64,000 nucleotides of DNA from Candidatus Latescibacterota bacterium (GTDB lineage Bacteria; Latescibacterota; UBA2968), in contig OZ241986.1 in the NCBI GenBank assembly GCA_965204375.1, positions 3,072,001-3,136,000 on the forward strand, written 5' to 3'. The position numbers and the translations under genes are program-made. Of the stretch, positions 29,081 through 52,154 are shown in pieces. Every line of letters begins with the position of its first letter. Position 1 is the first letter of the stretch. The notes under the pieces were generated by a model that was not told the origin of the DNA, searched no databases, and saw only the letters and a program-made list of their open reading frames with translations.

Positions 29081-29602
29081 TCACTGTGTGATTCCTGTCG
29101 CAAGTTCTCTAACTGACACAGTGAGTCTCTGCCCAATTGCATGTGACTTTGCCAAAGTAAGAAATCCTATTTCATCGCGAAGATCTTTCAGTTTAATAGT
29201 CTCATCGCTCAGCACCTGTCCGAAAAGCTTGAACCAAAACCACCGCTTTAGAAATATACTCGTAATATGGTTTGGCACTGTCCCTATCTTACGCCACTTA
29301 GATGGAGTGCTCTTATGCATGCCAATATGCTTTGCGACCTCATAGAATGGCGTCTCGCTGACATCACAAAGAAACTCCAACTCTACGAAGCTCAGTATTT
29401 CTGAAGACCCACAGATTTGGTTGGCAATTGCTTTGTGTATTCTATCAATCTCATCCTGTGAGATTGCGACTGTCCCATCTGGCATCTTTTTAAGATGCAG
29501 TTTCGGGACAAGCCAAGTTCGACCAGCTGCCCGATACTTGTAATTTTTTTGGCATTCAACCAATCCATAATTGGAATTTATCATCTCATTAAAAAAAGTC
29601 AA
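29081..29602 (-). CDS. HTH protein resembling MqsA/YgiT-type antitoxins (orphan, degenerate)
   Basis: YKY..AG...; IHKAIA...LS..ELEFL...EVAKHIGMHKSTPSKW HTH pattern. AT-rich; no Zn-ribbon CxxC pairs. Confidence 0.5.
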   Translation of the reverse strand: MTFFNEMINSNYGLVECQKNYKYRAAGRTWLVPKLHLKKMPDGTVAISQDEIDRIHKAIANQICGSSEILSFVELEFLCDVSETPFYEVAKHIGMHKSTPSKWRKIGTVPNHITSIFLKRWFWFKLFGQVLSDETIKLKDLRDEIGFLTLAKSHAIGQRLTVSVRELATGITQ

Positions 29603-29604
29603 TT

Positions 29605-30102
29605 CTACGTCTTAAAATTCGGCCTTATAATAGACGCAATCTCTTCTGCCCGTTCCCATGATACGGTCACCTTCTGCTTCAAACCCCCATCTTTCGGCTG
29701 TAAAGGGGCGATATGCGGTGGCCCACTCCCCCAGGTGCTCGACTTACGGCGCGGAACAACATGAATGTGAAAATGCGGCACTTCCTGCAAGCTGGCCACA
29801 CCGTTATTCTGATAAACCGTAATCCCATCCGGATTAAACGTTTTGGTAAGTGCCTCCGCCGCTATACGGACCGTCTTCATAATATCCCCAGCCTCATCAT
29901 CCGTCAAATCCAATATCGTCGGCGCATGGCGGCGAGGAACAACGAGAAGCTGACCGATTTCAAACTGTCTGGGATTGAGCACCGTAAGCGTCTTCTCCGT
30001 TAAATTGATAACATGCCTGTTTTCACCGCGTCCAGCAACTATTTCACAAAATGGACAGGGATCCCATGTCGGCATCTCAAACGGGGCAACAGTATCACTC
30101 AT
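29605..30102 (-). CDS. HIT family hydrolase
   Basis: CPFC and HFHIHVVPR histidine triad. Confidence 0.92.
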   Translation of the reverse strand: MSDTVAPFEMPTWDPCPFCEIVAGRGENRHVINLTEKTLTVLNPRQFEIGQLLVVPRRHAPTILDLTDDEAGDIMKTVRIAAEALTKTFNPDGITVYQNNGVASLQEVPHFHIHVVPRRKSSTWGSGPPHIAPLQPKDGGLKQKVTVSWERAEEIASIIRPNFKT

Positions 30103-30165
30103 TTTTTATTCTCTCTTCCCCAGTGCTTTTGTCGCACCAGCGGCATCCAGCCAAACCGCCTGTTT

Positions 30166-30639
30166 TCATCGCAATGATTTCTCAAAAGAAATAATGGTCA
30201 TTCTGTCATTAATCTCTCGCGTAACTTCTGTCCTCTTATAGCCCATTTTCTCATAAAAATAACAATTGCCTTCCTCTTGCAAAATCGTATCAAGCTCCCA
30301 GCACTCCGCATCAACAACATCCTCAACAAGCGCGATGGTATCCTGACCATATCCCTTCCCCTGATGCTCAGGGATGATAAACATGGGACTAATCCTCGCC
30401 CGTCTCGCCTCGTCGTCGTAGATAATTCTAATCGCTCCGATTTGCACACCATCAAGCATAATAAAGTAGTAAGTGGTATGGGGCTGCTTTAATCTGTTGA
30501 TAACTCGTTCAACATCTTCATTGGCCGGATTCGCATCGTAATCCCGATACTTATGGAGCAGTGGCAAAAATGACGCAACCTGAAGCCGGTGAATAGCCGC
30601 AGCATCTCTCATAGATGCTTTCTTTAAACTGATCCGCAT
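30166..30639 (-). CDS. GNAT N-acetyltransferase
   Basis: PEHQGKGYG and FYEKMGY motifs; probable start ATG 30639. Confidence 0.88.
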   Translation of the reverse strand: MRISLKKASMRDAAAIHRLQVASFLPLLHKYRDYDANPANEDVERVINRLKQPHTTYYFIMLDGVQIGAIRIIYDDEARRARISPMFIIPEHQGKGYGQDTIALVEDVVDAECWELDTILQEEGNCYFYEKMGYKRTEVTREINDRMTIISFEKSLR

Positions 30640-30643
30640 AAGT

Positions 30644-31195
30644 TCACCTGTTTTTTCGCGCCTCCCATTCATCACGCAATAACCCGCACCACACCATGTT
30701 TCTAAATTCGCCTCTCAGATATTGATCCTGGCGCAAGACACCTTCACGAACCATTCCGAGCTTCTCCATGACCCGGAGAGAACCGACATTTCTCTCATCG
30801 GCACCAGCGCGAATGCGATTCAACTCTGGATAGGCTGAAAACGATTCGTCGATAACAGCACCCGCAGCTTCCGTAGTCAGTCCTTTTCCCCAAAAGCGTC
30901 GGGCAATGCTATAGCCCATTTCGCCAACGCGATGATGAAAATTAAACCCAATATCAATTCCACCAATAACCGATCCAGCGTATTCAATCGCCCAGGATAC
31001 GCGTGTTTTGCGATCCTGCAACACCTGACCTGCTACAAATTTTTCGGCATCTGCTCTCGTGTAGGGCTGGGGAACCGGAAGAAAGCGTGCCCATTCTGGA
31101 TCGGATGCGTATAACAAAACATCTTCAACATCCACAAAGCTAAACACCCTGAGTATCAACCGGTCGGTTTTAATAAGTTCCGACAGCATTTTCAT
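30644..31195 (-). CDS. RimJ/RimL-type GNAT acetyltransferase
   Basis: TDRLILR, WGKGLTTEAA and N..S.RVMEKLGM..EG motifs. Confidence 0.9.
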   Translation of the reverse strand: MKMLSELIKTDRLILRVFSFVDVEDVLLYASDPEWARFLPVPQPYTRADAEKFVAGQVLQDRKTRVSWAIEYAGSVIGGIDIGFNFHHRVGEMGYSIARRFWGKGLTTEAAGAVIDESFSAYPELNRIRAGADERNVGSLRVMEKLGMVREGVLRQDQYLRGEFRNMVWCGLLRDEWEARKNR

Positions 31196-31206
31196 ATCTC
31201 TTTTTT

Positions 31207-31818
31207 TTAACCGACCTCATTCAACCATCTAAGAAAACTCTCGTCATTGGTGTACTGATAGGCAAACCCACCACAACCTCTGAACAACTCTGGCTCCTTG
31301 CTGCCATCTTCAATCAAAAGACTATTTCCATAGTGAATATCATCTCCCAACACTTTAAATGCAATCGGCCAGAGTGCACGCTTGTCGATTTCTCCGTAAT
31401 CGGAAGAATTGATAATCACATCAAATTTCTCGTCCAATTTATGCGATGGAATGACGACATCTGAAAAAATATCCATATTGGCAGTTACAAGCGCAGTACG
31501 TCTCCCTTGACTTCTCTGCGCCAGTGCGAAATTCAGAACTGCTTCGTTAAAATCAAGATTCCTGCACCCCAACGCCATAGTTTTCAAAACCGCAGAAATA
31601 TCCATATTTGCATGATCGGAAACAATAGCCGCAATATCTCTAAGACTCAGGGCATTCGTCATCCACATCCTGCAGATATGCCGATTGGCGAACACATGCT
31701 CTTGAATAATATCATGCCACTCAGGGCATTCAGGCGGGGATACCTTAAAATAGAGATCCGATGACAACGTAAAACCGAAGTCGAAAACAATGCACTTAAT
31801 TGATTCATAAGTCTGCAT
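31207..31818 (-). CDS. HAD-superfamily hydrolase-like protein
   Basis: VFDFGFTL motif I, LVTAN motif II, LLIED motif IV. Confidence 0.7.
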   Translation of the reverse strand: MQTYESIKCIVFDFGFTLSSDLYFKVSPPECPEWHDIIQEHVFANRHICRMWMTNALSLRDIAAIVSDHANMDISAVLKTMALGCRNLDFNEAVLNFALAQRSQGRRTALVTANMDIFSDVVIPSHKLDEKFDVIINSSDYGEIDKRALWPIAFKVLGDDIHYGNSLLIEDGSKEPELFRGCGGFAYQYTNDESFLRWLNEVG

Positions 31819-31823
31819 GCGAT

Positions 31824-32558
31824 TTAGTCTCTCCACTTATCACGTGGATAGGCCTGGAAGTTGAATTCTCCTCTATTGAGCGCCTCATCGAATTGCACAA
31901 GAGCCTTGATCACCTTTTTTCGGGCATCTGCCATAAATGGATTCAGCAATTGTGTCTCTCTGTATGTGGAAGGCGAGTTCGTTTTCAGGTGTTCAATCAG
32001 TTGCAAGAGGAACCTACCTGCTCCAGATGGCAACTTCTCGCGCTCTTCCTCCGGTAGATAAAGTTCAAGAGCCATACCAATGAAATGCGCCATACCAGGA
32101 CCTGTTCTGCGATCTTCATCTTCTGCAGTCCTGGGGATCAACTCGCAACCCATACGCTTCAGGCAGGCTGATATCTCGGGATCCGCTTTTCCAAACAGAG
32201 GTATATTGCCTGGACCAAGATGCGATAGTCCAAACCTCTCTCGATTCAATGTTGACAGTTCCTTATCGGCAGCAAGTCGTGCTGTGCAACAATCAATCAC
32301 AACGCAATCAGATTTGGCATGCTCATTGATTTTCTGAATCCATTTGCCAAGTGCCCAGACGGGAATAGCTAAAAAAATGACATCTGCCGCAGAAAGACTC
32401 TCAGTATTGTTGCTTGACTGCCACGCTCTAACATCAGCCAGTTCAGAGCTTATATCGCGACTTGAAATAACCTCGACCTGGAATTGATCTGCAAATGCAT
32501 TTACTGCCTGCTTTCCCATTCTGCCGAAACCGATTATGCAAAGTCTCTTCCTTGCCAT
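31824..32558 (-). CDS. Prephenate/arogenate dehydrogenase-like NAD-binding protein
   Basis: IIGFGRMG Rossmann motif; VIFLAIP, VIDCCT, H..G and NPF...R elements. Confidence 0.65.
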   Translation of the reverse strand: MARKRLCIIGFGRMGKQAVNAFADQFQVEVISSRDISSELADVRAWQSSNNTESLSAADVIFLAIPVWALGKWIQKINEHAKSDCVVIDCCTARLAADKELSTLNRERFGLSHLGPGNIPLFGKADPEISACLKRMGCELIPRTAEDEDRRTGPGMAHFIGMALELYLPEEEREKLPSGAGRFLLQLIEHLKTNSPSTYRETQLLNPFMADARKKVIKALVQFDEALNRGEFNFQAYPRDKWRD

Positions 32559-33277
32559 TACAAATGACTTCCTTTATATGAACTTCTGCTCGCCTGCTTG
32601 ATCCAGTTGGGAAGGTGCAAAACCAGACCATTCATCATCTTCTCTGTGTTTTCTACATAAATCTGCACATTGCCTTCATAAGCTTCTCCACCCTCAGCCC
32701 CCACCAAATCTGTAACCCCACGTAAAATGAGACATCTAACCTGATTTCGGTTTGCTACCCAGGCAATTGCACCCGATTCCCAATCTCCTGCTACTGCACC
32801 GTATTTGGACTTCAAATATGAAATATCTTCTGCCATTAGATCGCGGTCTGCTGATACGAGAACAGTTCTCAACACGGGATGGGGATATGGCTCACTCAAC
32901 CACGAAAGATCAATCTCAGTTGTATAATCTCTGATCGCTTCCTCTGTATCCAACATCTGCTCGACAATATCATAGACAACCGTCCGCTCAACCAGCACAA
33001 TCGTATTCTTCTCAACCCCGCCTTCAAACCCACCGCAAGTCCCCAAATTCACCACGAGATTTGGATCCCATCGGTCAATAGCATACTGCGCTGATGCAGC
33101 AGCAGAAATCTTACCCCATCCTCCGTAAAAAAATATGACTGGCTGTTGCCCACCTTTAGTGTCAAGGTGCGTCTCAAACCATTGTCCATAAGGAGATGCT
33201 TGTAGATCAGCATCGGAAAAAATTCTCCCGATAGCATCCCATTCAATATTGGCTGAAATGATCACAACAACAAACAT
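32558..33277 (-). CDS. MTA/SAH nucleosidase-like (purine/uridine phosphorylase family)
   Basis: SANIEW, GWGKISAA, NLGTCGG, DWESGAIA and RGVTD motifs. Confidence 0.85.
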   Translation of the reverse strand: MFVVVIISANIEWDAIGRIFSDADLQASPYGQWFETHLDTKGGQQPVIFFYGGWGKISAAASAQYAIDRWDPNLVVNLGTCGGFEGGVEKNTIVLVERTVVYDIVEQMLDTEEAIRDYTTEIDLSWLSEPYPHPVLRTVLVSADRDLMAEDISYLKSKYGAVAGDWESGAIAWVANRNQVRCLILRGVTDLVGAEGGEAYEGNVQIYVENTEKMMNGLVLHLPNWIKQASRSSYKGSHL

Positions 33278-33342
33278 AGACTAAACCCTTGGAATAGCCT
33301 CAAAATATTGAAGACATCAATCTGCAAATTGGGATTCAATTT

Positions 33343-34005
33343 TCAGTCTCCAACTTTTTTCCAAACATTGGCTGCATACATTAAGCCTATTTCGGGACTA
33401 CTAAGGATTGGAACTGAAATTTCCGGGCACAAATTTACGGCTCCCGACATAGAGGCTTGTGCCAATACAATAACATCTCCTTCAGATGCTCTGTCTTTTA
33501 TATTTCGGGCTATTTCACTAAAATATCCTTTGTGGTCTCCCGTCTCAAATCTGCTCCAAGCATTATCACAAAAAACCTCAATAAGCTCAACGCGATTTTG
33601 ACGTGCTTTTGCGGTTTCAAGAATAAGGTCACGAGTTGGAGCGATTGTACTCTCAAGTGCGGCAGCAACAATAATCCGAGAACCTATTTCGACTGCTTTC
33701 TCAGCCATAGGTCTATCAATTCGAACAATGACACCATCTGTCAGATTATTTACTTTTTCCGCACTTGCTCCAATTGTAGAACAGGTGCAGAGTATCACGG
33801 TTGCGCCTTTTTTTCTCGCGGAGAGAATACAATCCCGAATACGTTCATCCAAATTTTGAGTAATTCCTTTGTCACGGGCCTCTGTCAGAAATTGCTCTTC
33901 TATAATATGTCTAACGGGTAATTCTAAAGAAGCTTCCTCTATAAGCCGATTAAAAGTATCGACATGCACTGGTGAAGTGTGAAGAAAAGCCAAATGGGAT
34001 TGCAT
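33343..34005 (-). CDS. Asp/Glu/hydantoin racemase family protein
   Basis: FLHT, CTCSTIG, RIDRPM, LAQASM and PILSSP motifs; start ATG 34005. Confidence 0.85.
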   Translation of the reverse strand: MQSHLAFLHTSPVHVDTFNRLIEEASLELPVRHIIEEQFLTEARDKGITQNLDERIRDCILSARKKGATVILCTCSTIGASAEKVNNLTDGVIVRIDRPMAEKAVEIGSRIIVAAALESTIAPTRDLILETAKARQNRVELIEVFCDNAWSRFETGDHKGYFSEIARNIKDRASEGDVIVLAQASMSGAVNLCPEISVPILSSPEIGLMYAANVWKKVGD

Positions 34006-34020
34006 GAAATGACGCCCTTT

Positions 34021-34090
34021 CTCCGATAGATGGCGTTTTACCACAGAAATTCTACTACTCTTGTGACAATTTTAGCGGCAAAATGGTTTC
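34021..34090 (-). repeat. 70-bp reused leader, copy 1
   Basis: 57/70 ungapped identity to 41876-41945 by manual alignment; ends in SD GGAG on the minus strand. Confidence 0.85.
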
Positions 34091-34098
34091 TATATTAC

Positions 34099-34131
34099 AA
34101 AACAGGTCCACGAACAGTGTGGCCTGGTTTA
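34099..34131 (-). terminator. Putative terminator after the APH gene
   Basis: Imperfect stem AAACCAGGCCAC...GTGGACCTGTTTT on the minus strand directly after the stop codon. Confidence 0.5.
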
Positions 34132-34132
34132 C

Positions 34133-35161
34133 TCAGCCCACGTCATGCAGGCTCTCGATATCGGAAACCGCTGCACCCAGGAATTCAGGTGTCTTGGGAT
34201 GTAGAAGGCGACCGCAGTCCCAGAAAAACCTTATCCACCGGAGATTCGCGACAATTGATAGGATCTTCTCCTCTACAGGCGATAGTTCCGTAAGGGGCTT
34301 TTTGATAACGGCATTATAGGAAGATCGAAAAGCATCAACGTACCCGGGTTCGAAATGCTCTGAACCCGGCCTGGTCACATATTCCCCTTCAGCTTGCCGC
34401 AGATCATGGGCCGCCGTCCCCCAGCCAGCCGACTGGAAGTCATGGACATTTGAAATACGCAGGGCGTTGCCGTTCTCCACGAGCACATTGTGGAGTCCTG
34501 CTTCGCCCCACAAGAAGACGTTGCTGCCTTGCACCCTGACTTCGGGCACCAAGTCCGTGGCGACCAATAGCCTGCCCCAGAGTTCCGGCAGGGTTACCGC
34601 CATGGAAGAAGCCAACACCTCGTCTCCAAACATTGCTTCCCGGATCGTCCCTTCCCAAGACGCAAGATCTCTCTCCGTCTGTGATTGAAGTTCGTCTGGA
34701 CACTGTTGGCTGTGAATATGTGCCACTGTTTGTCCCAGTAGTGCGCCCAACTGCAACCGCTGTGCTCGAGATGCGTCCAGGTAGTAACCGAGTCCCGACT
34801 CACCCGGCTCGCCCGGGATCAAAAGACATTCAAAGACAAGTGGTTCACCATCGCCATCGTACACCAGAGATTCAGACACCGGAACACCGGCAGCGGCGCG
34901 CAATGCCTTTGTGGCGACGAACTCGATTTTCAAACTGAAGCCAGGGGATTGGCGAAACTGTATCTTCAAGATCACCCATCCGTGGACGCGAGTCTCCACC
35001 AGAAAAATCTGATTTGTGAAATTAGTCTCCAGGTGCCTGATCGACCGGGACGAACTGAAATCATGTTTCTCGAAAAGCGCATCAATCTGTGCGCGGGTTA
35101 CATCTGGCTTATCGCGGAATAGAGTTCGAATATCCTTCATACTGGCGAGTCTTGTTACCAT
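34133..35161 (-). CDS. Aminoglycoside phosphotransferase (APH/choline kinase-like) family protein
   Basis: N-lobe ILK..E; LG..VAHIHS; Brenner-like WGEAGLHNVLV; DFQSA..G...HDL. Confidence 0.75.
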   Translation of the reverse strand: MVTRLASMKDIRTLFRDKPDVTRAQIDALFEKHDFSSSRSIRHLETNFTNQIFLVETRVHGWVILKIQFRQSPGFSLKIEFVATKALRAAAGVPVSESLVYDGDGEPLVFECLLIPGEPGESGLGYYLDASRAQRLQLGALLGQTVAHIHSQQCPDELQSQTERDLASWEGTIREAMFGDEVLASSMAVTLPELWGRLLVATDLVPEVRVQGSNVFLWGEAGLHNVLVENGNALRISNVHDFQSAGWGTAAHDLRQAEGEYVTRPGSEHFEPGYVDAFRSSYNAVIKKPLTELSPVEEKILSIVANLRWIRFFWDCGRLLHPKTPEFLGAAVSDIESLHDVG

Positions 35162-35166
35162 GCGGA

Positions 35167-35207
35167 AATGATTCCAAAAACTCCAATTGTGAACACAATC
35201 AAATTCC
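35167..35207 (-). pseudogene. 5' stub of a NUDIX gene (paralog of 38357-38800)
   Basis: 37/41 identical to 38765-38805; encodes (M)IVFTIGVFGII versus (M)TVFTIGVFGII. Confidence 0.85.
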
Positions 35208-35497
35208 TAAGAAATATGGATATCCACACCGTATAGCCGTAATCCCAACTTTTCTGCGACGCGTTGAGAGGCTCTATTATCCCAAGAAGTACTATAAAGA
35301 GGAAGCTGACAGAGCGCTTCTGGTATGTCATAGCGAAAACGCACGACCGAACCGCAACGAGTTCGTCCTATGAAAACAACAGGGGCAGGATGGTCCTCTG
35401 GTCGATACGGTTCATTTATGAATCGGAGGCGTCCTTCATCATCATGGACAAAGAGCGTATCAACCTGAATTTTCATGAGTGATAAGTCAGAAATCAT
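35207..35497 (-). pseudogene. Internally deleted GNAT acetyltransferase
   Basis: The N-terminal segment joins directly to the GNAT C-terminal motif PLYSTSWDNRASQRVAEKLGL; the acetyl-CoA motif A (R/QxxGxG/A) is missing; only 96 aa. Confidence 0.65.
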
Positions 35498-35928
35498 AGA
35501 TTAGAGTCACGCGATCGTATCAGAGTATCTACCCCGTATTTTCCCGAGCCGATAACTACAAACATCCCTGTAATAACCAGGTACAGAAATGCCATCTCCT
35601 TCGTGCTGAATGGATCCGCTGCGTGTTGTAAGAACCCGGCCACCAGCATGGTAGAACAGATCAAAAACGCCCCTGGCCGCGTGAGTAATCCCAGTGCCAA
35701 CAATAGCCCGCCGCCAAACTCCGAAAAGGCTGCCATCCAGGCAAAAAACTCGGGCAAGGGAAACCCCAAATTTTCTATAACGGCCACAAACCGTTCGGAA
35801 GGGGGGATCTTCCCCAATCCATGTCCCAATGCCATACTCAACCCTACAAACACCCTGAGAATCGCCAACCCGACATTTGCCGGGATTGACTCAATAACTG
35901 CTCCGCCAAATACAAGTCGCTTAATCAT
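35494..35928 (-). CDS. DoxX family membrane protein
   Basis: LAILRV..G....HG..K, EFGGGLLLALGLLTR and GSGKYGVD motifs. Confidence 0.9.
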   Translation of the reverse strand: MIKRLVFGGAVIESIPANVGLAILRVFVGLSMALGHGLGKIPPSERFVAVIENLGFPLPEFFAWMAAFSEFGGGLLLALGLLTRPGAFLICSTMLVAGFLQHAADPFSTKEMAFLYLVITGMFVVIGSGKYGVDTLIRSRDSNL

Positions 35929-35965
35929 AACCTACCTCCCTATTGTGATTTACAGACGTCGTCAT

Positions 35966-36709: not shown

Positions 36710-36772
36710 TTTGAAATGACAATACGATCTAATTCTTTTCTATTTTATAGCCGAGGCGCATTTCGCTTTCAA

Positions 36773-37048
36773 TTATCCCACCGAAAAATGCAATTTCTTT
36801 CCAACTGCCTTTGCATACTTTCCCAAAGTTGACAGCCTGATGTCTTTTGCATGGTTTTCTATTCTTGAAATCGCAGATTTCTTGGTATTCAGTTTCTGTG
36901 CCACCTCTTCCTGGGTTAGACCCGCCTCTTCTCGAGCTTGTCGGAGGAGGACACCGATCTTAAATTCCAAATAACCAGCTTCGTAATTCTCGGCAAATTC
37001 GGGATCTCTTGCCTTGCGTTTCTCAACATACTTTTTTAAATCGCTCAT
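36773..37048 (-). CDS. XRE-family HTH antitoxin (HigA-like)
   Basis: [16 protein letters not shown]......SAISRIEN; overlaps the toxin stop codon (ATGA). Confidence 0.88.
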
Positions 37049-37395: not shown

Positions 37396-37483
37396 ATTTA
37401 AAGTTAACGAATATGTTACCAAAAACAAGCAAAATAACGCCAAATAGCCCTTGTTTCAATTCGTGTTAAACCTGTCCACCGCT

Positions 37484-44253: not shown

Positions 44254-44266
44254 GGCAGCCTCCCAT

Positions 44267-46195
44267 TCAACTACAATACCTCTCCAACCACGACAACATC
44301 CTATCGAGATATTCCACATGCAGCGCCGGGTGTCCGCTCCTCCTGAACCCGTGAGACGACTTCGGAAAGCGCACAAACTCCACCGTCTTGCCCTGTCGTT
44401 TCAGCGCGACAAAAAACTGCTCGGCCTGCTCAATAGGACAGCGGTAGTCCTCCTCCCCGTGCATCAACAACACTGGCGTCTGCACCTCAGAAGCATACGT
44501 CAACGGCGACCGCTCCACAAGAGCTTCCACATTCTCCAGAACCGAACCCCGCCACTGATTCTCTCCGAAAGACACCCCGATATCCGACGTACCGTACATA
44601 CTGTGCAAATTGATACACGGAGCGCCGATCACCGCCGCCTTGAACCGATGATCGTGACCGACGATCCAGCTACTCATAAAACCGCCATAGCTATAGCCGT
44701 GAACCCCCAACCGGTCCGCATCCACATAGGGCCGCTCGCACAGCAGGTCAACCCCGGCCATCAAATCCAGAAAATCTTCCCCACCCCAATCCCCCAGCAC
44801 CATCTTCAGAAACTCCGGTCCATAAGACGACGACCCCCTCGGATTCACAGCCAGCACGATATAGCCCGCACCTGCCAGAACCTGATGCGTGACATCGTAC
44901 GAATCCGAGAACCGACCATTTGGTCCCCCGTGAATATCCAGCATCAGCGGATAGGACCTCGCCTCGTCGAAATCCTGGGGAAACAGCACCCGCGCCTGAA
45001 TCATCTCCCCACCCCGCTCGAACACCAGCTTCTCCACGCGCGCACCGGGATGCGCCTCCAAAAACCCGGCATTAACAGCCGTCACTGCGCGTTGACGCTT
45101 CTCTCCCACATCCATCACCACCACATCGCCCGGACAAACAGGCGAAGTCATCACCATCGCGACACACGCGCCCGAGCGGTCAACCGACAAACCCGTACAA
45201 ACCTGACCGCCCCCATCCACAACCTCGATTTGCAAAGACGGACCATCGGGATTCACCCGACACAAAAACGACTCACCTTCCCTGTCGCCGATAAACAAAA
45301 TCTCGCCCTTCGGCGTCCAGCACCGCGGCGCAAGAGGTTGCACAACCGTATAAACATCACCCGCCACACACACCGGCGCTTCATCTTCCCCAAGCACAAA
45401 CAACCACGACTGCCTTGAATCCCACACATCTGCATCCTGCGATCCCGCAACCACCAGCCGCTCTCCATCCGGCGACCAAGCCACGGACTCCGCGCGACTC
45501 AACCCATGCGACCAGCACTGCGATCTCCCACCCGTCTTGTCCATCACATGGACCGCTGAACCCCGCACAAAATCGCGTCCCTCGACGCAATCCGTCACAA
45601 ACGCAATGCGGCGCCCATCGGGCGACCACGCCGGCGCCCCGTAGTCACCTTCCCCATCTGTAATCTGCTCCGCCTCACCCGTTACGGCATCCACCAGAAA
45701 CAATTGCGAAAATGCGTCGCCTCGCCAGCCACCCTCGTCATCGCGATACCGCACGCGACGGGCGATCTGCGTCCTCGTCATCTTCTCCTCATCTTCTTCC
45801 ACGCGATCTGGATCCACGCGCGACACAACGACAAAAGCCGAACCATCGGGCGACCACGCCATATCCTTCACGCCATCGGGAAGCGTCGTCACCTGCCTCG
45901 CATCTCCGCCACCAACTGGCATCACCCAGACCTGCTTTTTATCATCCTCTCCCGAACGCAAAAACGCCAGACGCTTCCCATCTGCCGAAAGTCTGGGCGC
46001 ACTGTCCCCTGGCTCCTGCGCCACATCGACCGCATCCCCACTCTCAAGCGACTGAATCGCGATCCGCGACTCCCGCTTCATCGTCTCTTTGTTGATCTCT
46101 TGTCGCACGAAAACCACAGCCGACCCATCCGCCGCAATCTCCACTCCCGATACTTCGATCAAATTGTATATATGCTCGGGTTTAATTGGCGACAT
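44267..46195 (-). CDS. S9-family peptidase (dipeptidyl/acylaminoacyl peptidase)
   Basis: WSPDG propeller repeats; IHGGP; GYSYGG nucleophile; HGEEDYRC; SHG. Confidence 0.93.
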   Translation of the reverse strand: MSPIKPEHIYNLIEVSGVEIAADGSAVVFVRQEINKETMKRESRIAIQSLESGDAVDVAQEPGDSAPRLSADGKRLAFLRSGEDDKKQVWVMPVGGGDARQVTTLPDGVKDMAWSPDGSAFVVVSRVDPDRVEEDEEKMTRTQIARRVRYRDDEGGWRGDAFSQLFLVDAVTGEAEQITDGEGDYGAPAWSPDGRRIAFVTDCVEGRDFVRGSAVHVMDKTGGRSQCWSHGLSRAESVAWSPDGERLVVAGSQDADVWDSRQSWLFVLGEDEAPVCVAGDVYTVVQPLAPRCWTPKGEILFIGDREGESFLCRVNPDGPSLQIEVVDGGGQVCTGLSVDRSGACVAMVMTSPVCPGDVVVMDVGEKRQRAVTAVNAGFLEAHPGARVEKLVFERGGEMIQARVLFPQDFDEARSYPLMLDIHGGPNGRFSDSYDVTHQVLAGAGYIVLAVNPRGSSSYGPEFLKMVLGDWGGEDFLDLMAGVDLLCERPYVDADRLGVHGYSYGGFMSSWIVGHDHRFKAAVIGAPCINLHSMYGTSDIGVSFGENQWRGSVLENVEALVERSPLTYASEVQTPVLLMHGEEDYRCPIEQAEQFFVALKRQGKTVEFVRFPKSSHGFRRSGHPALHVEYLDRMLSWLERYCS

Positions 46196-46197
46196 AT

Positions 46198-47343
46198 CTA
46201 TCTCCCACGCGACGTATAAACGCGACCGCCCTTGACAACCGCAACCGGCATCAGATTCTGCCGACCCGTCCGAACTTCTCCACGCGAATCCTCAAACCGA
46301 AACGCCCCTTCTCGCAACTCAAACAGCACAGCATCCCCAAACGCCCCTTTCGCGAGCGTCCCCACCTCACCTTTCATCCCGATAACCTCAGCAGGCACAG
46401 ACGTCACGCGCGAGATCGCCTCTTCCATCGACAGACCCAGGTGCAAAAACTTTGTCACCACAGACGCGAGATCGTAAACAGGACCATCTACATTGTAAAT
46501 ATGCAAATCCGATGAAATCGTAGTCGGCAGAACACCCTGCGACATCGCCGCCTCGACAATTCCCCATGAAAAAGACCCCGCCCCGTGTCCCACATCAAAC
46601 ACAACGCCCCGCTCAATCGCATCCAGAACCGAATCGCGGATGCGACCTTCGCCATCGAGAATCCCACACGGAAAGTCGTGAAAACAATGCGTCAAAATAT
46701 CCCCGCCCTTCATCACATCCAAAATATCGTCAATCGAATCGCACCACGCATCCTGCGGATGCACCATAATGGGCAATCCGGCCGCATCTGCCGCCTCTCT
46801 CGCCCTGTGCAGAGGCAACATCCCGGACCGCTCGCTGACGATACTATTCCGCGTCAGTCGAACCTTCACCCCGAGAACAATATCGCGGTGCTGCTCAATC
46901 ATGCGGCAGGCCTTATCCACATCCGCGTATTCGGGAATCTCGAACTCGCCGATCTCGGCAGTCAGCATACCCTGTGACGAGATATTCATCTGTGCCAGAA
47001 TCCGCGTCTCACTCACATCAATCACGTACTTCCGGAACCCCGGAAAAATATCTGCACCCGCAGATCCCGCATCGACCACAGTCGTCGCACCTCGGGCAAG
47101 ACACGTAGGGTCGGGTTCAATGCCGAAATGACTGACACCAGCAAACACATGGACGTGAATATCGATCAACCCCGGCGTCACCACACAACCCGTCGCGTCA
47201 ATCACCTCGCGGGCATCGCCCGTATCCAGATCTTCCCCAACAGCAGCAACCCTGCCCTCCGAGAACGCCACATCCCGCACATCACTGAGGTCTTCCGCCG
47301 GATCGACCAGCATCCCGCCCTTGATGAGCAAATCGTACTTCAT
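46198..47343 (-). CDS. Amidohydrolase/deacetylase-family metallohydrolase (dihydroorotase-like)
   Basis: PGLIDIHVH, VDAGSAG, THCF, DVGHG and ISSDLH motifs; start ATG 47343 after GAGGGG. Confidence 0.9.
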   Translation of the reverse strand: MKYDLLIKGGMLVDPAEDLSDVRDVAFSEGRVAAVGEDLDTGDAREVIDATGCVVTPGLIDIHVHVFAGVSHFGIEPDPTCLARGATTVVDAGSAGADIFPGFRKYVIDVSETRILAQMNISSQGMLTAEIGEFEIPEYADVDKACRMIEQHRDIVLGVKVRLTRNSIVSERSGMLPLHRAREAADAAGLPIMVHPQDAWCDSIDDILDVMKGGDILTHCFHDFPCGILDGEGRIRDSVLDAIERGVVFDVGHGAGSFSWGIVEAAMSQGVLPTTISSDLHIYNVDGPVYDLASVVTKFLHLGLSMEEAISRVTSVPAEVIGMKGEVGTLAKGAFGDAVLFELREGAFRFEDSRGEVRTGRQNLMPVAVVKGGRVYTSRGR

Positions 47344-47373
47344 CGCAAACTCCCCTCTCGTAAACTCCTTCAT

Positions 47374-48156
47374 TCACCCGGCGTGTACGCGCGGCATGAT
47401 CAGGCGGCGGTTGCGCGCCAGGGGCAAACCGGCGAAAGCGCAACGGTTATTCCACTGATCTATAGCCGCAGCATTTTTGTATTCGTTAATAATGGCGTGG
47501 CGGCCCCGCTGGGTGTAGTTGTGCCCGGCTCTGTGTACCACCAGCACATGAATAATCGCCACATCGCCGGGTTGCGCGCTCAGAACAACCGGGCGTTCGG
47601 GAGCAATCAAATCATCTGCAATTGTATGGCCCTTATAGGTCGGAAACTCGCCCTCGCGATGAGAACCGGGCACCACCTCAGTGGCTCCGGCCTCAAAATC
47701 AGTGGGATCGAGGTACGTGATAGCCGCAGCCAGATCCGGAATCGTGTGACGCTCGTACGGCCAATCCTGATGCCAGCTCTGCGCGCAGAAAAAACCGGGC
47801 GGTTTATTGCGGATCTTCCCATTGTGAAAATCGAGATCAGGCCCCAAAAGATCGACCATAACCGAAACAATGCGCGGCTCGGTGAACTGATCGAACCAGT
47901 AGTCATCAGCCAGCGTCTGATCCATCATACCCACCACATTCTTCGGATTAAAAGGATCGGGCTGATACCCCTCGGGCACCTCCATAAAACTGTAGCGCAT
48001 ATTTTGGGGGCGCCCTTCGGTGCGGACGACCAGATCGTGGAAACGGCCGCGCATCTCCTGCATTTCTCGGGAACCGTAAAAGCCCTCCAAAAAGAGAAAG
48101 CCATCATCGTCAAAATCGCGCTTCTGATCTGGTGTCAGGATCAACAGATTGGACAT
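47374..48156 (-). CDS. Phytanoyl-CoA dioxygenase (PhyH) family
   Basis: F..DGF, WHQD, VVPGSH and H..VVH...N...R motifs. Confidence 0.9.
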   Translation of the reverse strand: MSNLLILTPDQKRDFDDDGFLFLEGFYGSREMQEMRGRFHDLVVRTEGRPQNMRYSFMEVPEGYQPDPFNPKNVVGMMDQTLADDYWFDQFTEPRIVSVMVDLLGPDLDFHNGKIRNKPPGFFCAQSWHQDWPYERHTIPDLAAAITYLDPTDFEAGATEVVPGSHREGEFPTYKGHTIADDLIAPERPVVLSAQPGDVAIIHVLVVHRAGHNYTQRGRHAIINEYKNAAAIDQWNNRCAFAGLPLARNRRLIMPRVHAG

Positions 48157-48196
48157 AACACAACCCTCCTACAACCGCTGATTAATAGGTATTTCG

Positions 48197-49177
48197 TCAA
48201 TGAGGATGGGATATTTCATGGAAAACGGGCAGCAAATAGGCGATAGCAACGCTCACGATCAGACCGAAAGTAATCTTCGCAAAGTCGGAAAGCACCAGAC
48301 GCGACACCTCCCGGCGGCTGCGGTGCTTTTCATTCCATGCAACGGCGATCTCGCGTCCAGCCAGCAACCCGACAAAAACCCAGGTCGTACTCATCGGGAG
48401 CTTGCTAACTTCCTTGAACAGGAACAGCACGATGCCATAGATCAGATCTACAAAAGTTGCCGAACGGATATCCGTGGTATTCGTCTTCGTCAACACCACT
48501 TTCTGGATCGCACCACCATGTGTATAAAAGATAATGGCTTGCATAGCCAGCATGGTTGCGATGGATGCTATAAACCATCCCACAGCTATATCTGGCGTAC
48601 GAGTGACCGGATCGCGCGGCAGGAAAACATAGATATTGGCCAGATCCTGTATCAGCCACTGACTCCAGAGAAAACCGGTTGAACACCACTGCGCCACCAC
48701 CCACCACGGGCTTTTCGGGCCATCCGTCTGCCTGAAACGGGACTCTAACCCCCGCGTAACCAGCCTGTAAATAAAGATAGCGGCCACGAATGCAGTCGCA
48801 TACCCCGCCAACGACTTGATCAGCATGCTCGGCAACGCCTTTGGTGCAAACACCGTCAGGGTCAGAAAAGTGGTACTAACCGGGATACCCCCGCGGGTCA
48901 GCAAAAGCAGTACAAAAGGCGGGATACAGTAAACCCAGTTAAAATGGTCTGGCACTGGAATTGCCGTAAGCCTACCATAGGAGACATCGCCATCATAGAC
49001 CACCCACCCATATACGAGAACCACGGTCAAGATGCCGCCGCCAAAGAGCCATAGCACCCACCAGGGACGGTGAGAATTAGAACTGAGAAACGTCCCCAAC
49101 GTCTGAATTGCGTCGTTGCCGACAATGGAATACGCACCGAGCAAAAAGCCAATGACCATTAAAACTTCCAAACTCAT
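48197..49177 (-). CDS. Multi-pass membrane protein, PiT (phosphate/sulfate permease)-like
   Basis: GNDAIQT and twin P(V/M)STT motifs; start ATG 49177 after GGAGG. Confidence 0.65.
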   Translation of the reverse strand: MSLEVLMVIGFLLGAYSIVGNDAIQTLGTFLSSNSHRPWWVLWLFGGGILTVVLVYGWVVYDGDVSYGRLTAIPVPDHFNWVYCIPPFVLLLLTRGGIPVSTTFLTLTVFAPKALPSMLIKSLAGYATAFVAAIFIYRLVTRGLESRFRQTDGPKSPWWVVAQWCSTGFLWSQWLIQDLANIYVFLPRDPVTRTPDIAVGWFIASIATMLAMQAIIFYTHGGAIQKVVLTKTNTTDIRSATFVDLIYGIVLFLFKEVSKLPMSTTWVFVGLLAGREIAVAWNEKHRSRREVSRLVLSDFAKITFGLIVSVAIAYLLPVFHEISHPH

Positions 49178-49249
49178 AAATCCCTCCCTGTAAGGTGTGT
49201 TAAATGTCCATTGGCAGACATTCAACGAACGGTTGCGATAATAAGGATA

Positions 49250-50719
49250 TCACGCAATCGAGAAATCAAATTTAACACGCGACTGATCGGATGCAGCAGT
49301 AAATGTGACGTTCGCCGTGGTATCTGTGATCTCAACGGCTCGCTGTGCGATATCCGTCTCAATCCCAATCTCGAGACCATCCAGACGCCACACATCCTCT
49401 TCAAACACAGCCACATTTGGTGAAAAAATCTCAAACACAAACTCCCGCGGATGTCCGGCCTCTGTCTGCTGTTCACCTCTAATCTCAGCCTCAATCGACA
49501 GACGCCCTGCTTCCGCCTTCGCCGCAACCTGTCCAATATGCCGCAGCGCGAGCCAGCCGGTCTCTCCATCTGACATGCGCCAGTGGACCGTCGCCGGATG
49601 GTATTGGAAACTGCGACCGGAATAACCACCCGAATCCTCTGCGCCGATCATGTAATGCGCATCCAGCCACGCGGTTGCAACGCGCTCTGGTTCAGCCGTG
49701 ATCCGTTTCTCGACACCTCGTGTACCTTCAAAAGCTGAGAAAGCAGCAGCGACCTCTGGCGGCGCATCAACCCCGAGAATCGCAAGACAAGGTCCATAAT
49801 TGAACTCGGCATTAATCTCCTCTCCCTTCGGAAACGGCGTCACCTCACGGCCAAACGCGAGCCAGATATGCAGACTCGTAAGCGCGGTATAATGCTTCAT
49901 ATCCATCCCATAGCTGCGCGAAAAAGGCCCGCAGAGATTGCCCAATCCCGCGTGGTAATAGCGCGCAATATCCCGCCAGAGTTCTTTCTCCATATACGCG
50001 CCCAATTCGTGGAGCGCACTATTCTCCAAATAGCGTCGCCAGAAACCGAGCGCGTAAAGATTCACACCATAGTACGTCGGTGAATTGTACTCCGCAAAAG
50101 CATTATTCTGCGCGAACAAACGATAGACCTCACCGCCAAATTCCTCACCGTATAAAACCATCTCATCATTTCCAATCCGCTTCCCAACCCACACGGACAG
50201 CGCGGCCTTCATCAAAGCGATATTCGAATACGTCGGCGGACAGCGATCCGGAGGCTCGCCCACAACAGCCATCTCCAAAGATCGGATCATGCGATCAACC
50301 AATCTCTGAGGCAACCGATCCCCGTACTCCTCGAGCGCGGTCGCAAACCCAAGCCCGATAAACTGACGCCAGTTCGGATCATAAGTACGCCACATCACGG
50401 CATCACCCTCTGAGGGATGTGGCTCGCCCACATAGCGATAAAAAGTACCGTGGTATGGCGTCCCCGGCTCGTCGAATTGATTATCGATAATCGCATCAAT
50501 CGTACGACACGCCCGCTCGACATCATCACCTTGATTGCGAAGCAGAAGCCCCACCGCGAACCAGACCGAATTCCGAACCATCAGCACCGCATCATTCTGG
50601 CGATGGGACCACAACAACGCGCTATCGGGATCCCAAAATCCCTCTGACCACTCGAGCGACTCAGTTGCGAGATGCCTCGCATAAGGCGACAGATCGGATA
50701 AAGAAATACCTTCAGACAT
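49250..50719 (-). CDS. Conserved hypothetical protein (possible helical-toroid plus beta-domain lyase/hydrolase)
   Basis: Long ORF with SD GGAG; conserved-looking motifs YDPNWRQF, YSNIALM, EYNSPTYYG and GPFSRSYGMDM. Confidence 0.65.
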   Translation of the reverse strand: MSEGISLSDLSPYARHLATESLEWSEGFWDPDSALLWSHRQNDAVLMVRNSVWFAVGLLLRNQGDDVERACRTIDAIIDNQFDEPGTPYHGTFYRYVGEPHPSEGDAVMWRTYDPNWRQFIGLGFATALEEYGDRLPQRLVDRMIRSLEMAVVGEPPDRCPPTYSNIALMKAALSVWVGKRIGNDEMVLYGEEFGGEVYRLFAQNNAFAEYNSPTYYGVNLYALGFWRRYLENSALHELGAYMEKELWRDIARYYHAGLGNLCGPFSRSYGMDMKHYTALTSLHIWLAFGREVTPFPKGEEINAEFNYGPCLAILGVDAPPEVAAAFSAFEGTRGVEKRITAEPERVATAWLDAHYMIGAEDSGGYSGRSFQYHPATVHWRMSDGETGWLALRHIGQVAAKAEAGRLSIEAEIRGEQQTEAGHPREFVFEIFSPNVAVFEEDVWRLDGLEIGIETDIAQRAVEITDTTANVTFTAASDQSRVKFDFSIA

Positions 50720-50806
50720 CGCGTGTCTCCATATTCCAATTCGCGTCCTTCATAATATACGCTTTCCCTGCAAATCCTTTGCCGAAAAATTCCGTTGAGA
50801 AATGGG

Positions 50807-51514
50807 CTACGACTCCGCCGCGTATCGCCGCAACACTTCGGCAATACGTGTGAAGCGCGCATCGTCGGGAAATTGTGCAAGCCATTCCAGCAACGTCTTA
50901 TTATCCTCTGTAAACTTCGCATCGGGATCGGCACCACTTTCCAAAAGCAACTCTACCGTATCGAGATGCCCGTGCCCGCCAGCGCAATACAACACCGTAT
51001 GCCCGCGATCATTTGCGACATTGACATCTGCGCCATGCGCGATCAACAAACGCACAATCTCCGTATCCCCATTGCGCGCCGCGTGATGCACAGGCTGATC
51101 GCCGCGACCATCTATCGCCGTCGCCAGATGGGGATGCCTGTTGAGCAACGCCAGCACCCGCGCAGCATCCGCGAGAAAAACCGACACCAGGAACTGCCGC
51201 GACAAATCATCAGTCGGACGAACATGGGAATCCAGCGCACCGTATTGAATAAGCAGTGAAACAATATTTTTATTATTCGGAACCTCGCCAGCGTAGTGCA
51301 ACACATAGCCATCATGAGCAGATAGGTCGGCCCCCGCCTCAATAAGCAGACGCACGACATCCTCACGTCGCCAAAGTCCCGCGTGAAAAATCGGCCGCCA
51401 TTCGTATTCATCATCTGCATCAACCGCAGCGGGATCGGCTGCAATCATTTCGCGCACAGCGTCGATATCCCCGCGCCTGCATGCATCGTGAATTGTTAGT
51501 GTATCACTCATCAT
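50807..51514 (-). CDS. Ankyrin repeat protein
   Basis: PIFHA..., PVHHAARNGD.EIVRLLI.HGADVN and LYCAGGHGHLDTVELLLESGADPD repeats. Confidence 0.92.
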   Translation of the reverse strand: MMSDTLTIHDACRRGDIDAVREMIAADPAAVDADDEYEWRPIFHAGLWRREDVVRLLIEAGADLSAHDGYVLHYAGEVPNNKNIVSLLIQYGALDSHVRPTDDLSRQFLVSVFLADAARVLALLNRHPHLATAIDGRGDQPVHHAARNGDTEIVRLLIAHGADVNVANDRGHTVLYCAGGHGHLDTVELLLESGADPDAKFTEDNKTLLEWLAQFPDDARFTRIAEVLRRYAAES

Positions 51515-51533
51515 TCACCCTCAATTATTTGTG

Positions 51534-52154
51534 TTAAAAGCGTCTTCGAGCAATGACAGAATGAAAACAAATGCCATCTCGGGGTTCCAATCTGCGATAG
51601 TACTCCAACCTGAATGACCTCTGCAAAACTTTCAGAAGTGTCTCTATACTTCTCAAAGAAAAAAACCGCTTCGGCTCATAAGTGTCCCGCTCCAAAATAC
51701 CCTCAAAGTCATCGCCCCCCCACACGCCAACATACATCAAACCATCCTCCACGAGCCGAGCCGCAATCAAATCGAAAATCTCATCTATATCTGCCTGCGG
51801 GATATGCAGCAGACAATTCAGAGAATAAACCGCATCAAAAGTCTCGCTCAACTGATCGAGATTATAGCAATCCAGAACGCGAGCGGAAACCTCTTTCTCT
51901 CTCGCCAACTTTACCATCGTCGGCGCGTTGTCGATCGCAAAAACCCGGAAACCCTGCGCTTGAAAAAATTTCGCATCGTGACCGGGACCGCATCCCAATT
52001 CGAGAATAGAATTTCGCTGCTCGTTTCTCAAACACTGCAAAAATTCGCTTCGCTCTCGCACCTTAAACTCATCAGTAGAACTATGCTCTCTCTCCAGCGC
52101 ATATCTTTCATACGAGGCAATCAAGCTATCGGTGAACTCCATGAAAGCCTCCAT
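51534..52154 (-). CDS. Class I SAM-dependent methyltransferase
   Basis: ILELGCGPG and FDAVYS.N.LLH motifs. Confidence 0.9.
   Translation of the reverse strand: MEAFMEFTDSLIASYERYALEREHSSTDEFKVRERSEFLQCLRNEQRNSILELGCGPGHDAKFFQAQGFRVFAIDNAPTMVKLAREKEVSARVLDCYNLDQLSETFDAVYSLNCLLHIPQADIDEIFDLIAARLVEDGLMYVGVWGGDDFEGILERDTYEPKRFFSLRSIETLLKVLQRSFRLEYYRRLEPRDGICFHSVIARRRF

Follow-up and report, generated by a model that had tools for sequence, protein, structure and literature searches.

How does a long, one-directional row of short and functionally unrelated genes, with the look of an integron cassette array, come to be assembled and to vary where no integron machinery is apparent? The question is posed by a locus in Candidatus Latescibacterota bacterium (GenBank assembly GCA_965204375.1), where minus-strand genes fill positions 29081-52154 of a 64,000-nucleotide (nt) stretch of contig OZ241986.1 (3,072,001 to 3,136,000 of the forward strand; hereafter the window, whose numbering is used throughout). 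A reading of these letters without database searches (the sequence-only reading) had described the row, here called the array, as an integron-like gene-capture hotspot in which genes would be swapped by recombination at gene ends or microhomologies. Our analysis confirms what that reading observed and supports its interpretation in part. The array resembles an integron in content and packing only; it is no integron, and nothing points to a site-specific mechanism. We favor, with a probability of roughly 0.7, a flexible genomic island without mobile-element genes that sits inside an operon-like, one-directional row and has been shaped by gene loss and homologous reassortment. The ancestor of a subclade within one Latescibacterota genus already possessed the assembled array, and a colinear version occupies another chromosomal locus in a genus of a different family.

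Content, packing and recombination machinery

The array comprises 32 minus-strand open reading frames (ORFs), with no better plus-strand gene inside it according to ORF calls and Pfam. One of the 32 (41818-42204) is probably no gene and another (35207-35497) is a remnant; the array as such stands, with a count that differs from the ~28 genes first proposed. Its content is small enzymes of unrelated families, one toxin-antitoxin (TA) pair and gene fragments at junctions, which bears out the description of minus-strand, mostly short genes with unrelated neighbors. Pfam and NCBIfam likewise support the assigned NUDIX, HIT, DoxX, RidA, APH, ANT-like and AAC(3) proteins, the TA pair and three S-adenosylmethionine (SAM) methyltransferases (37484, 42123 and 51534), while three GNAT acetyltransferases are identified (30166, 30644 and 39369) where four had been proposed, together with the truncated AAC(2')-II-like acetyltransferase at 35207-35497. 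Five ORFs, starting at 29081, 31207, 41818, 48197 and 49250, have no significant family match.

Packing is tight, as had been noted. Among the 31 junctions, 12 overlap or abut, 12 are of 2-45 nt, six of 63-88 nt and one, to hflX, of 117 nt; spacers are below 70 nt at 27 junctions and below 63 nt at 24, and the larger ORF overlaps arise because start calls follow the longest ORF. The hflX gene (27668-28963) lies directly downstream, where the array had been said to end. Against a genome-wide set of 5196 genes from a crude codon-usage caller with equally crude ORF picks, the array is the fourth longest of 1203 co-oriented runs and ranks among the highest 1% of 22-gene windows in its share of genes shorter than 260 amino acids (aa); spacer length does not stand out, its median being at the 50th percentile. 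Cumulative GC skew separates clear replichores, with the origin near 5.2 Mb and the terminus near 1.7 Mb, and despite this the leading strand carries only ~52% of these crudely called genes; replication bias is therefore ruled out as the source of the co-orientation.

A complete integron requires intI and attC, and a cluster of attC sites lacking an integron integrase (CALIN) requires at least two attC sites, according to the definitions of Cury et al. 2016 (PMC4889954). The array falls under neither definition, as judged from an integrase model, spacer folding and a repeat search. The 6.34-Mb genome contains only two matches to the tyrosine recombinase family PF00589 (3.366 and 4.258 Mb), each more than 230 kb from the array; one is a XerD (362 bits, cut-off 329.6) and the other XerC-like (329.4 bits, cut-off 335.15), and the integron integrase model TIGR02249 gives them only 147 and 114 bits against a cut-off of 265. 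The single serine recombinase in the genome lies at 0.67 Mb, 2.4 Mb from the array, and by the two Pfam models searched the genome as a whole holds very few recombinases. No attC-like hairpin was detected: all seven spacers of at least 63 nt fold no better than shuffled sequences on either strand (z -1.83 to +0.74), and the repeat search found no inverted-repeat family in the spacers and no recurrent recombination site delimiting genes, only a repeat of ~75 nt, D1, with 2-3 copies per array. The sequence-only reading had reported neither integrase nor attC, and the genome-wide recombinase search it proposed, together with spacer folding, agrees. More broadly, Pfam and flank annotation reveal no integrase, transposase, prophage, integrative and conjugative element or conjugation genes in the window, ARAGORN finds 0 tRNAs there, and Rfam at gathering thresholds returns 0 families.

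These searches bear on the idea that an unrecognized recombinase inserts and excises single genes at gene ends, through a site too short or degenerate to see. Such capture would fit the cassette-type content and the one-directional packing, but the candidate enzymes are limited to XerC/XerD-like proteins and one distant serine recombinase, the spacers lack hairpins or a common motif and are mostly below 63 nt, and D1 does not occur once per gene. The junctions themselves, considered below, carry the remaining evidence for and against it.

Variation, scars and selection among congeners

The compared genomes are Candidatus Latescibacterota metagenome-assembled genomes, one per species. Both anchors of the array are conserved in the genus: among 18 congeners drawn, hflX is 94-96% identical at the aa level in 15, and the divergent glutamine-synthetase-like (GS-like) gene 94-97% in 14. 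These two genes border the interval in all 11 congeners fetched that have both on one contig, in which it measures 15.2-29.9 kb vs 23.3 kb in the window; for G002, without a GS-like match, the DNA on the hflX side was used. Backbone gene order is colinear in all 12 congeneric genomes, with 80-100% aa identity to the window proteins. Content is hypervariable: of 46 gene families scored in the 12 genomes, eight are complete in all and 30 are variable (complete in 2-10), the pattern of presence and absence differs in each genome, and loci L055 and L068 add two more arrangements. The mean alignable fraction in six complete relatives is 25-89% at 28-44 kb vs 96-100% in the flanks (14-26 kb and 48-62 kb), in agreement with the earlier placement of the densest part at 29-43 kb, and 44-52 kb behaves almost like core genome. 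The additional genes of relatives are of the same kinds, including GNATs, a second NUDIX, a second APH, a second nucleosidase-like protein and another methyltransferase, together with S8/S9 peptidases, PIN/YafQ/HTH TA parts, an ABC transporter pair, a desaturase and a plus-strand ZIP transporter.

Breakpoints, taken as the ends of blastn homology blocks, group into 78 clusters that are not independent events. Thirty-two of these fall no more than 15 nt from a gene end, a zone that makes up 6.9% of the sequence (binomial p 2.5e-17). Clusters common to at least five genomes are within 6 nt of a gene end (28965, 29608, 30163, 31192, 35163, 35496, 38816, 40677, 42857, 47373 and 51540), with the exception of 42970 (seven genomes), 75 nt into the gene for the FAD oxidoreductase. 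Between 5 and 10 genomes have whole-gene alleles in common whose breakpoints coincide with start and stop codons, and singleton clusters are mostly intragenic. Microhomology, seen as overlap between adjacent blastn blocks, marks several intragenic deletions: it amounts to 10 nt at the amidohydrolase deletions of both G018 and G009, to 9 nt in each of the F420 oxidoreductase and PNP genes of G002, and to 18 nt at the S9 peptidase deletion of G002, which runs between two perfect copies of a repeat, D5. Metagenome contigs show two intragenic joints with 8 and 10 shared letters; of 11 other joints, ten share 0 letters and one shares 1, and at several of these 11 the joint is filled with 14-66 unrelated letters, or with 904 where an entire gene sits there.

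The pieces of other genes that had been noticed at junctions are real, as tblastn, blastn, the repeat search and NCBIfam each attest. The gene x2, source of the stub at 30093-30158, is intact in four of the 12 relatives. The ORF at 35207-35497 corresponds to a 235-aa AAC(2')-II-like gene minus an in-frame internal segment of 417 nt (blastn gap against G016, G006 and G004). The ANT ORF has a 5' extension (40682-40818) that is the surviving start of x10, an S8-peptidase gene lost by deletion: its initial 48 codons now run in frame into the ANT gene (tblastn aa 1-48, 75%). Copies of 46, 33 and 39 nt from the NUDIX and creatininase genes occur only at nearby junctions and nowhere else in the genome. 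Both APH and the racemase gene have been relocated among arrays; in G006 APH directly follows NUDIX, and a model of tandem duplication followed by differential loss would explain the copy of the NUDIX 5' end before APH in the window. Because the resolved stubs are remnants of genes that are intact in relatives, they are scars of deletion, fusion and local duplication and not footprints of insertion.

The intact genes are under purifying selection. The ratio of nonsynonymous to synonymous substitution rates (dN/dS) against relatives is 0.04-0.26 in all 30 genes tested, with the upper values of 0.19-0.26 in APH, ANT, AAC(3), DoxX, a GNAT and the nucleosidase-like gene, and is 0.07 for hflX and the GS-like gene. 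The synonymous rate dS spans 0.14-0.43 in array genes, bracketing the anchors at 0.33-0.37, and is lowest in the antitoxin (0.14), the 37484 methyltransferase (0.16) and the nucleosidase-like gene (0.19). Purifying selection and anchor-like dS together indicate that the intact genes are functional and have been in the lineage for about as long as the DNA around them. The nearest relative shifts along the row, being G016 for hflX (94.7%) and DoxX (97%), G002, G005 or G014 for GNAT1, GNAT3, the racemase gene, NUDIX and ANT (93-96%), G014 for the 37484 methyltransferase (96%), and G018 or G009 for the HTH antitoxin (98%); in the left flank G016 is closest throughout. Within one genome pair, identity ranges over 86-98% along the array, and 259 of 435 pairs of variable families show all four combinations of presence and absence.

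Taken together, the alignment of the hflX-to-GS-like interval that the sequence-only reading had called for yields variable content and breakpoints enriched at gene ends, and the idea of a gene-capture hotspot holds in so far as the spot is hypervariable, with gene-end breakpoints, stubs and segregating junctions. Capture as the main process is not supported, given stubs that are remnants of genes intact in relatives, dS like that of the flanks and no delimiting site. The backbone gene order does not vary among the 12 congeners; conserved order, which that reading had itself named as counting against it, is largely what is found, here and in the second genus described below, alongside the hypervariable content.

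Segregating alleles are also found within close relatives of the window. Public runs labeled sponge, coral or reef metagenomes contain parts of it, and the contigs compared here, which match the window at 95% identity or above, come from three studies (three DNA runs and the RNA-library run X8). Junctions known from other species recur in these contigs. An allele lacking unk173 joins 28964 to 29608 with 26 other letters in place (runs X8, X5 and X7), and forms with and without unk173 coexist in one sample; run X4 carries 904 letters at the stub site 30093-30158, where relatives carry x2; an allele lacking APH joins 34093 to 35211 in X4 and X8; the 37484 methyltransferase is absent from contigs of X4, X7 and X8; and a 35163-to-35504 allele and the G018-type amidohydrolase deletion are present as well. 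That the locus is an ordinary conserved operon, or that its variability is an artefact of chimeric or collapsed metagenome assembly, is hard to credit on these data. All compared genomes are indeed metagenome-assembled and single samples contain strain mixtures, but the same insertion and deletion alleles appear in independent assemblies, including eight single-contig genomes, and in runs of three studies, the flanks from the same data are colinear, and open-frame remnants and microhomology are biological signatures.

The recurrence of alternative junctions in independent metagenomes, the start- and stop-codon alleles common to 5-10 genomes and the position of D1 at rearrangement breakpoints would each suit integron-like capture. 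Against these, the whole-gene alleles substitute unrelated filler (14-66 nt, or 904 nt with a whole gene) and are not clean excisions, many breakpoints are intragenic with microhomology, and order is kept across two genera. We therefore regard capture by an unseen recombinase as very unlikely.

The D1 repeat deserves separate treatment. Among the 12 arrays it has 24 copies, upstream of the racemase gene, RidA, the APH or nucleosidase-like gene and a PIN gene; no copy occurs elsewhere in the genome, and no convincing one in the arrays of the second genus, g2. Three congeners retain a plus-strand ZIP gene that separates RidA from the following methyltransferase and interrupts the row, and there D1 lies in the divergent gap before RidA; G021, of genus g2, has a ZIP gene in the same place. 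In G016, D1 is split by an insertion sequence (IS). Breakpoints cluster in D1 or at its edges, for example at 34042-34117. From its placement, D1 is probably a duplicated internal promoter/operator module, and it is possibly also a breakpoint hub, a candidate substrate for homologous rearrangement. Other expression signals are unremarkable: a scan for sigma-70-type promoters gives 26 sites vs 22.2±4.9 in shuffles and says little, because this organism may use promoters of another type; a terminator-like scan gives 18 sites vs 17.7±4.3. Some contigs of the RNA-library run bridge gene junctions, and they do not show a single transcript, transcript ends, strand or level.

A bolder version can be built on D1, in which the array is a recombinase-free counterpart of an integron: D1 and near-identical contexts of ribosome-binding sites and start codons would act as portable homology patches for RecA-type or microhomology-mediated deletion, duplication and re-seating of genes that remain expressed, and the block would spread between families of sponge- and coral-associated Latescibacterota without a dedicated mobility gene. 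We consider this rather improbable and offer it as speculation.

The colinear array in a second genus and the proposed history

Whole-genome searches place an S9 peptidase (80%) and an AAC(3) (76%) close together in G021, a genome of a different family (f2) whose hflX is 69% identical. G021, G024, G027 and G019, all of genus g2, carry a colinear array at a locus not near hflX, in the order two GNATs, second APH, racemase, methyltransferase, NUDIX, second NUDIX, dCTP deaminase, S8 peptidase, AAC(3), RidA, ZIP (shown only in G021), methyltransferase, S9 peptidase and amidohydrolase, with gene-level differences of their own. Array proteins are 66-91% identical between the genus of the window (g1) and g2, and their DNA 68-83%, vs core proteins at 67-69% (hflX), 62-64% (GGT), 65-66% (MMPL) and 60-61% (PBP1); the same core proteins are 78-87% identical to an array-free congener, G011. 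In a search of 168 genomes from the phylum, the identity of the S9 peptidase is 90-95% within the genus, 79-85% in g2 and only 54-62% in other genera of the window's own family. Because array proteins are closer between the two genera than core proteins are, an old transfer of the whole block is indicated, and the transfer of an already assembled block between the two lineages, as judged from these identities, would be the simplest reading.

The distribution outside these arrays is patchy. The S9 query has no match in four of 20 congeners, and in three of those four (G001, G011 and G017) the AAC(3) and HIT queries find nothing either. At three distant loci (G089 and G085 of the window's family, G101 of family f4) the S9 peptidase has no array neighbors. 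No array genes lie beside hflX in G001, G011, G017, G020, G021, G023, G024 or G027, apart from an HTH/Gp49 pair in G001, and the weak matches beside hflX in these distant relatives are at the level of paralogues (PhyH-like 25-27%, AAC(3)-like 35-36%). The pair in G001 (locus L022; 68% and 81% aa identity) adjoins hflX at ~1.5-2.3 kb in a genome from which the array is absent.

These features also invite the view that a plasmid or integrative element brought in the block and later lost its mobility genes, with the present variability as the decay of that island. Different loci in two families, greater similarity than core genes, patchy distribution, the lower GC (44-50%) and low codon-usage score at 29-43 kb, and the presence of TA modules all suit such an origin, and its transfer step overlaps with the explanation we favor. 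It fits less well with the persistence of the array while at least 16 of 20 congeneric species radiated, with purifying selection on all intact genes, and with the failure to find any integrase, transposase, conjugation or phage gene in the window, any mobility gene beside the G021 array, or a tRNA. We consider a decayed element unlikely, if worth keeping in mind.

Under the preferred reading, an island shaped by loss and reassortment, the whole block would have moved between the two lineages long ago, and present differences between species would have arisen mainly by loss. Young deletions would start and end anywhere, often between direct repeats of 8-18 nt, and leave stubs, in-frame fusions and pseudogenes, whereas the alleles that persist and are common to several species would be those joined at stop and start codons. 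Where spacers measure 0-90 nt, neighbors, ribosome-binding sites and downstream expression stay intact only at junctions of this kind. Local duplications with differential loss may shift genes within the row, leaving copies of 33-71 nt of nearby genes, and homologous recombination through the conserved genes between variable slots may reassort presence/absence alleles among lineages. D1, lying upstream of different genes, would probably serve as an internal promoter/operator that keeps sub-rows expressed after rearrangement.

Several observations weigh against this reading. Gene-end breakpoints do not discriminate between mechanisms, since they are expected under any of them once selection removes damaging junctions. 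The density of short repeats in the array is ordinary, at 3-4 pairs per 15 kb; local short-repeat density was tried and rejected as a genome-wide scar signature, 127 of 844 genome windows having at least three pairs. Pairs with all four presence/absence combinations can also come from parallel loss, and gain is possible for unk173, x20, x55, x10 and x50, each found in only 1-3 genomes. IS200/IS605 and DDE transposase genes lie inside the arrays of two relatives: the former (Y1 transposase and TnpB-like) at L011:6505-8030 in G010, with the same genes in G016, adjoining the second APH gene, and the latter at L013:9747-10862 in G016. That attC is absent is judged from folding, repeat searches and spacer lengths; nearly all NCBIfam scores of the array enzymes fall below curated cut-offs; and the co-transcription of the row and the promoter role of D1 are what we infer, as contigs cannot show transcripts. 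The one-genome-per-species, metagenome-assembled sample belongs on the same list.

Features of the row and comparison with known systems

The features of the row and its anchors are collected in Table 1.

Table 1. Coordinates, strand and supporting evidence for features of the array and its anchors; fractions give occurrence among the 12 congeneric genomes unless stated otherwise.
Feature	Position	Strand	Evidence and occurrence
hflX GTPase, conserved anchor just downstream of the array	27668..28963	-	Pfam GTP-bdg_N/M, MMR_HSR1; conserved in 15 congeners
Whole co-oriented array, 32 ORFs	29081..52154	-	ORF calls, Pfam
unk173, 173-aa ORF, no family	29081..29602	-	2/12
HIT-family hydrolase	29605..30102	-	PF01230; 12/12
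x2 stub, last 22 codons of a 305-311-aa GNAT gene	30093..30158	-	tblastn 91% over aa 284-305 of 311; Pfam of x2
GNAT acetyltransferase	30166..30675	-	PF00583; 10/12
Block with colinear homologues in genus g2	30166..47373	-	tblastn/blastn against G021, G024, G027, G019
GNAT (Acetyltransf_3)	30644..31195	-	PF13302; 12/12
209-aa ORF, no family	31207..31836	-	Full in 8/12, partial in 1
NADP oxidoreductase-like (F420_oxidored)	31824..32558	-	Pfam; full in 5/12, internally deleted in 2
PNP_UDP_1 nucleosidase/phosphorylase-like	32558..33277	-	Pfam, NCBIfam; full in 4/12, partial in 2
Asp/Glu racemase family; start probably near 34005	33343..34044	-	PF01177; ORFs of relatives 220 aa
D1 copy a, directly upstream of racemase gene	34021..34091	-	Repeat search; breakpoints 34042-34117
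APH-family phosphotransferase	34133..35161	-	PF01636; full in 7/12
46-nt copy of NUDIX 5' end (38761-38806, 89%)	35163..35208	-	Between the stop of 35207-35497 and the APH start
AAC(2')-II-like acetyltransferase remnant	35207..35497	-	NCBIfam model residues 2-59 + 209-238; blastn gap
DoxX membrane protein	35494..35928	-	PF07681; 12/12
Creatininase-family amidohydrolase	35966..36709	-	PF02633; full in 4/12
33-nt copy of internal NUDIX segment (38562-38594, 88%)	36715..36747	-	Spacer upstream of creatininase gene
Toxin-antitoxin pair	36773..37443	-	Gp49/HigB-like 37045-37443 + HTH_3 36773-37048
39-nt copy (85%) of internal creatininase segment (36306-36344)	37460..37498	-	Spans methyltransferase 3' end and spacer
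SAM methyltransferase	37484..38275	-	PF08241; 3/12
NUDIX hydrolase	38357..38800	-	PF00293; 11/12
dCTP deaminase	38819..39355	-	PF22769; TIGR02274 112.3 bits, above cut-off 92.8
GNAT acetyltransferase	39369..39875	-	PF00583; full in 9/12
ANT-like nucleotidyltransferase; start in relatives is ATG at 40677	39832..40818	-	PF13427 (AadA_C), PF01909 (NTP_transf_2)
AAC(3)-family N-acetyltransferase homologue	40682..41539	-	PF02522 (Antibiotic_NAT) E 1.4e-92; full in 8/12
RidA	41526..41870	-	PF01042; 12/12
D1 copy b, directly upstream of RidA, inside doubtful ORF 41818-42204	41876..41946	-	Repeat search
SAM methyltransferase	42123..42857	-	PF13649; full in 7/12, partial in 3
FAD oxidoreductase	42895..44376	-	Pfam
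S9 peptidase	44267..46195	-	Pfam
Amidohydrolase	46198..47373	-	Pfam; deleted independently in G018, G009, G004, G002
Conserved end, seen in genus g1 only	47374..52154	-	11-12 of 12; no g2 counterpart
Ankyrin-repeat protein at conserved array end	50807-51514	-	Pfam
Glutamine-synthetase-like gene, divergent anchor	52245..53651	+	PF00120; conserved in 14/18 congeners; below NCBIfam GlnA cut-off

Curated NCBIfam cut-offs are passed only by the dCTP deaminase and the amidohydrolase, the latter block (42895-47373) containing a match to NF006689 at 406.8 bits, above its cut-off of 371. The APH, ANT-like, AAC(3) and AAC(2')-II-like proteins are family-level homologues only and do not qualify as acquired aminoglycoside-resistance enzymes: AAC(3) scores 205.9 bits with NF033082, below the cut-off of 270, the ANT(9) model gives 42 bits vs a cut-off of 340, the truncated AAC(2') gene reaches 87 vs 390 with the AAC(2')-IIb model, and APH has no NCBIfam match. 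By sequence, the TA pair classes as a type II HigB/HigA-like system (PF05973 E 1.3e-17, PF01381 E 7e-14, a 4-nt overlap and the toxin gene first); the HTH antitoxin is full in five of the 12 genomes and the Gp49 toxin in three. PADLOC assembles no defense system in the array and returns generic domain matches only (HIT to ThsC2, methyltransferases to mad2 and similar).

The conserved end of the array encodes a PhyH dioxygenase, a 342-aa ORF without family match, a 489-aa ORF of no family, the ankyrin-repeat protein and a SAM methyltransferase. Proteins of the ankyrin type are a frequent topic in work on sponge symbionts.

Beyond the array, the window encodes RND efflux, MlaC and other outer-membrane functions. 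A second insertion/deletion spot lies at 17220-17227, between an aminotransferase gene (16108-17226) and a ParA/Mrp-like gene (17242-18033), where five of six complete relatives carry an extra 6-8 kb that is absent from the window and from G010. A GNAT-like gene of 375 aa (11151-12278; region 11131-12285) has no counterpart in G006 and G015.

The locus shows that cassette content, one-way packing and junction scars can arise without integron machinery, and content alone should not earn a row of genes the description integron-like. It offers a well-resolved gene-turnover hotspot free of mobile-element genes in an uncultured phylum, with at least 46 gene families in about 15 slots across 12 species and young scars beside old clean alleles, and with these a natural system for how selection on neighbors filters the end-points of deletions in a tightly packed row. 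The block of ~17 kb further presents a probable case of old multi-gene transfer between families without a recognizable vehicle. By family assignment, the enzymes point to a variable set of small-molecule-modifying functions in sponge and coral symbionts, and they would probably act as a tunable repertoire for modifying or detoxifying small molecules in that setting.

Among known systems, the Bacteroidales recombinase-associated orphan immunity gene arrays (rAID) are found in a related superphylum and are likewise one-directional arrays of small, unrelated and horizontally shared genes; they have a conserved tyrosine recombinase and intergenic repeats, neither of which is found here. Integrons and CALIN, as described in PMC4889954, share with the array co-oriented, short and unrelated accessory genes, aminoglycoside-modifying-type enzymes, GNATs and TA systems, and content that differs between close relatives. 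They differ in that the array has no intI and no attC-like palindromes, its spacers are mostly too short, and its order is kept between genera. The additive flexible genomic islands of marine bacteria (Lopez-Perez et al., as described in PMC4033161) resemble it in the presence or absence of cassettes at strain or species level at a fixed chromosomal place, but the focal genome does not fit the definition of membership in that class, and IS elements occur in only two of 12 congeneric arrays.

The closest comparison is with turnover hotspots free of mobile genetic elements. In the account of Oliveira et al. 2017 (PMC5635113), half of hotspots lack mobile elements, 27% lack any mobility-associated protein, and the core genes flanking hotspots recombine more. 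The array differs from the hotspots of that account in being a chain of single-gene slots interleaved with persistent genes, in its one-way genes with almost no spacers, in a backbone order kept across two families at different loci, and in that loss and reassortment are documented here and inflow of new genes is not. It has the conserved flanks and high turnover that define a hotspot, with no mobile elements in the focal window (IS and DDE genes being confined to the G016 and G010 arrays). Possible signs of homologous exchange via conserved neighbors may be read from the shifting nearest relative and from junction alleles common to several species and metagenomes. As in those hotspots, content change is concentrated between the same conserved genes, no integrase, transposase or tRNA accompanies it in the focal genome, and resistance-type genes are enriched.

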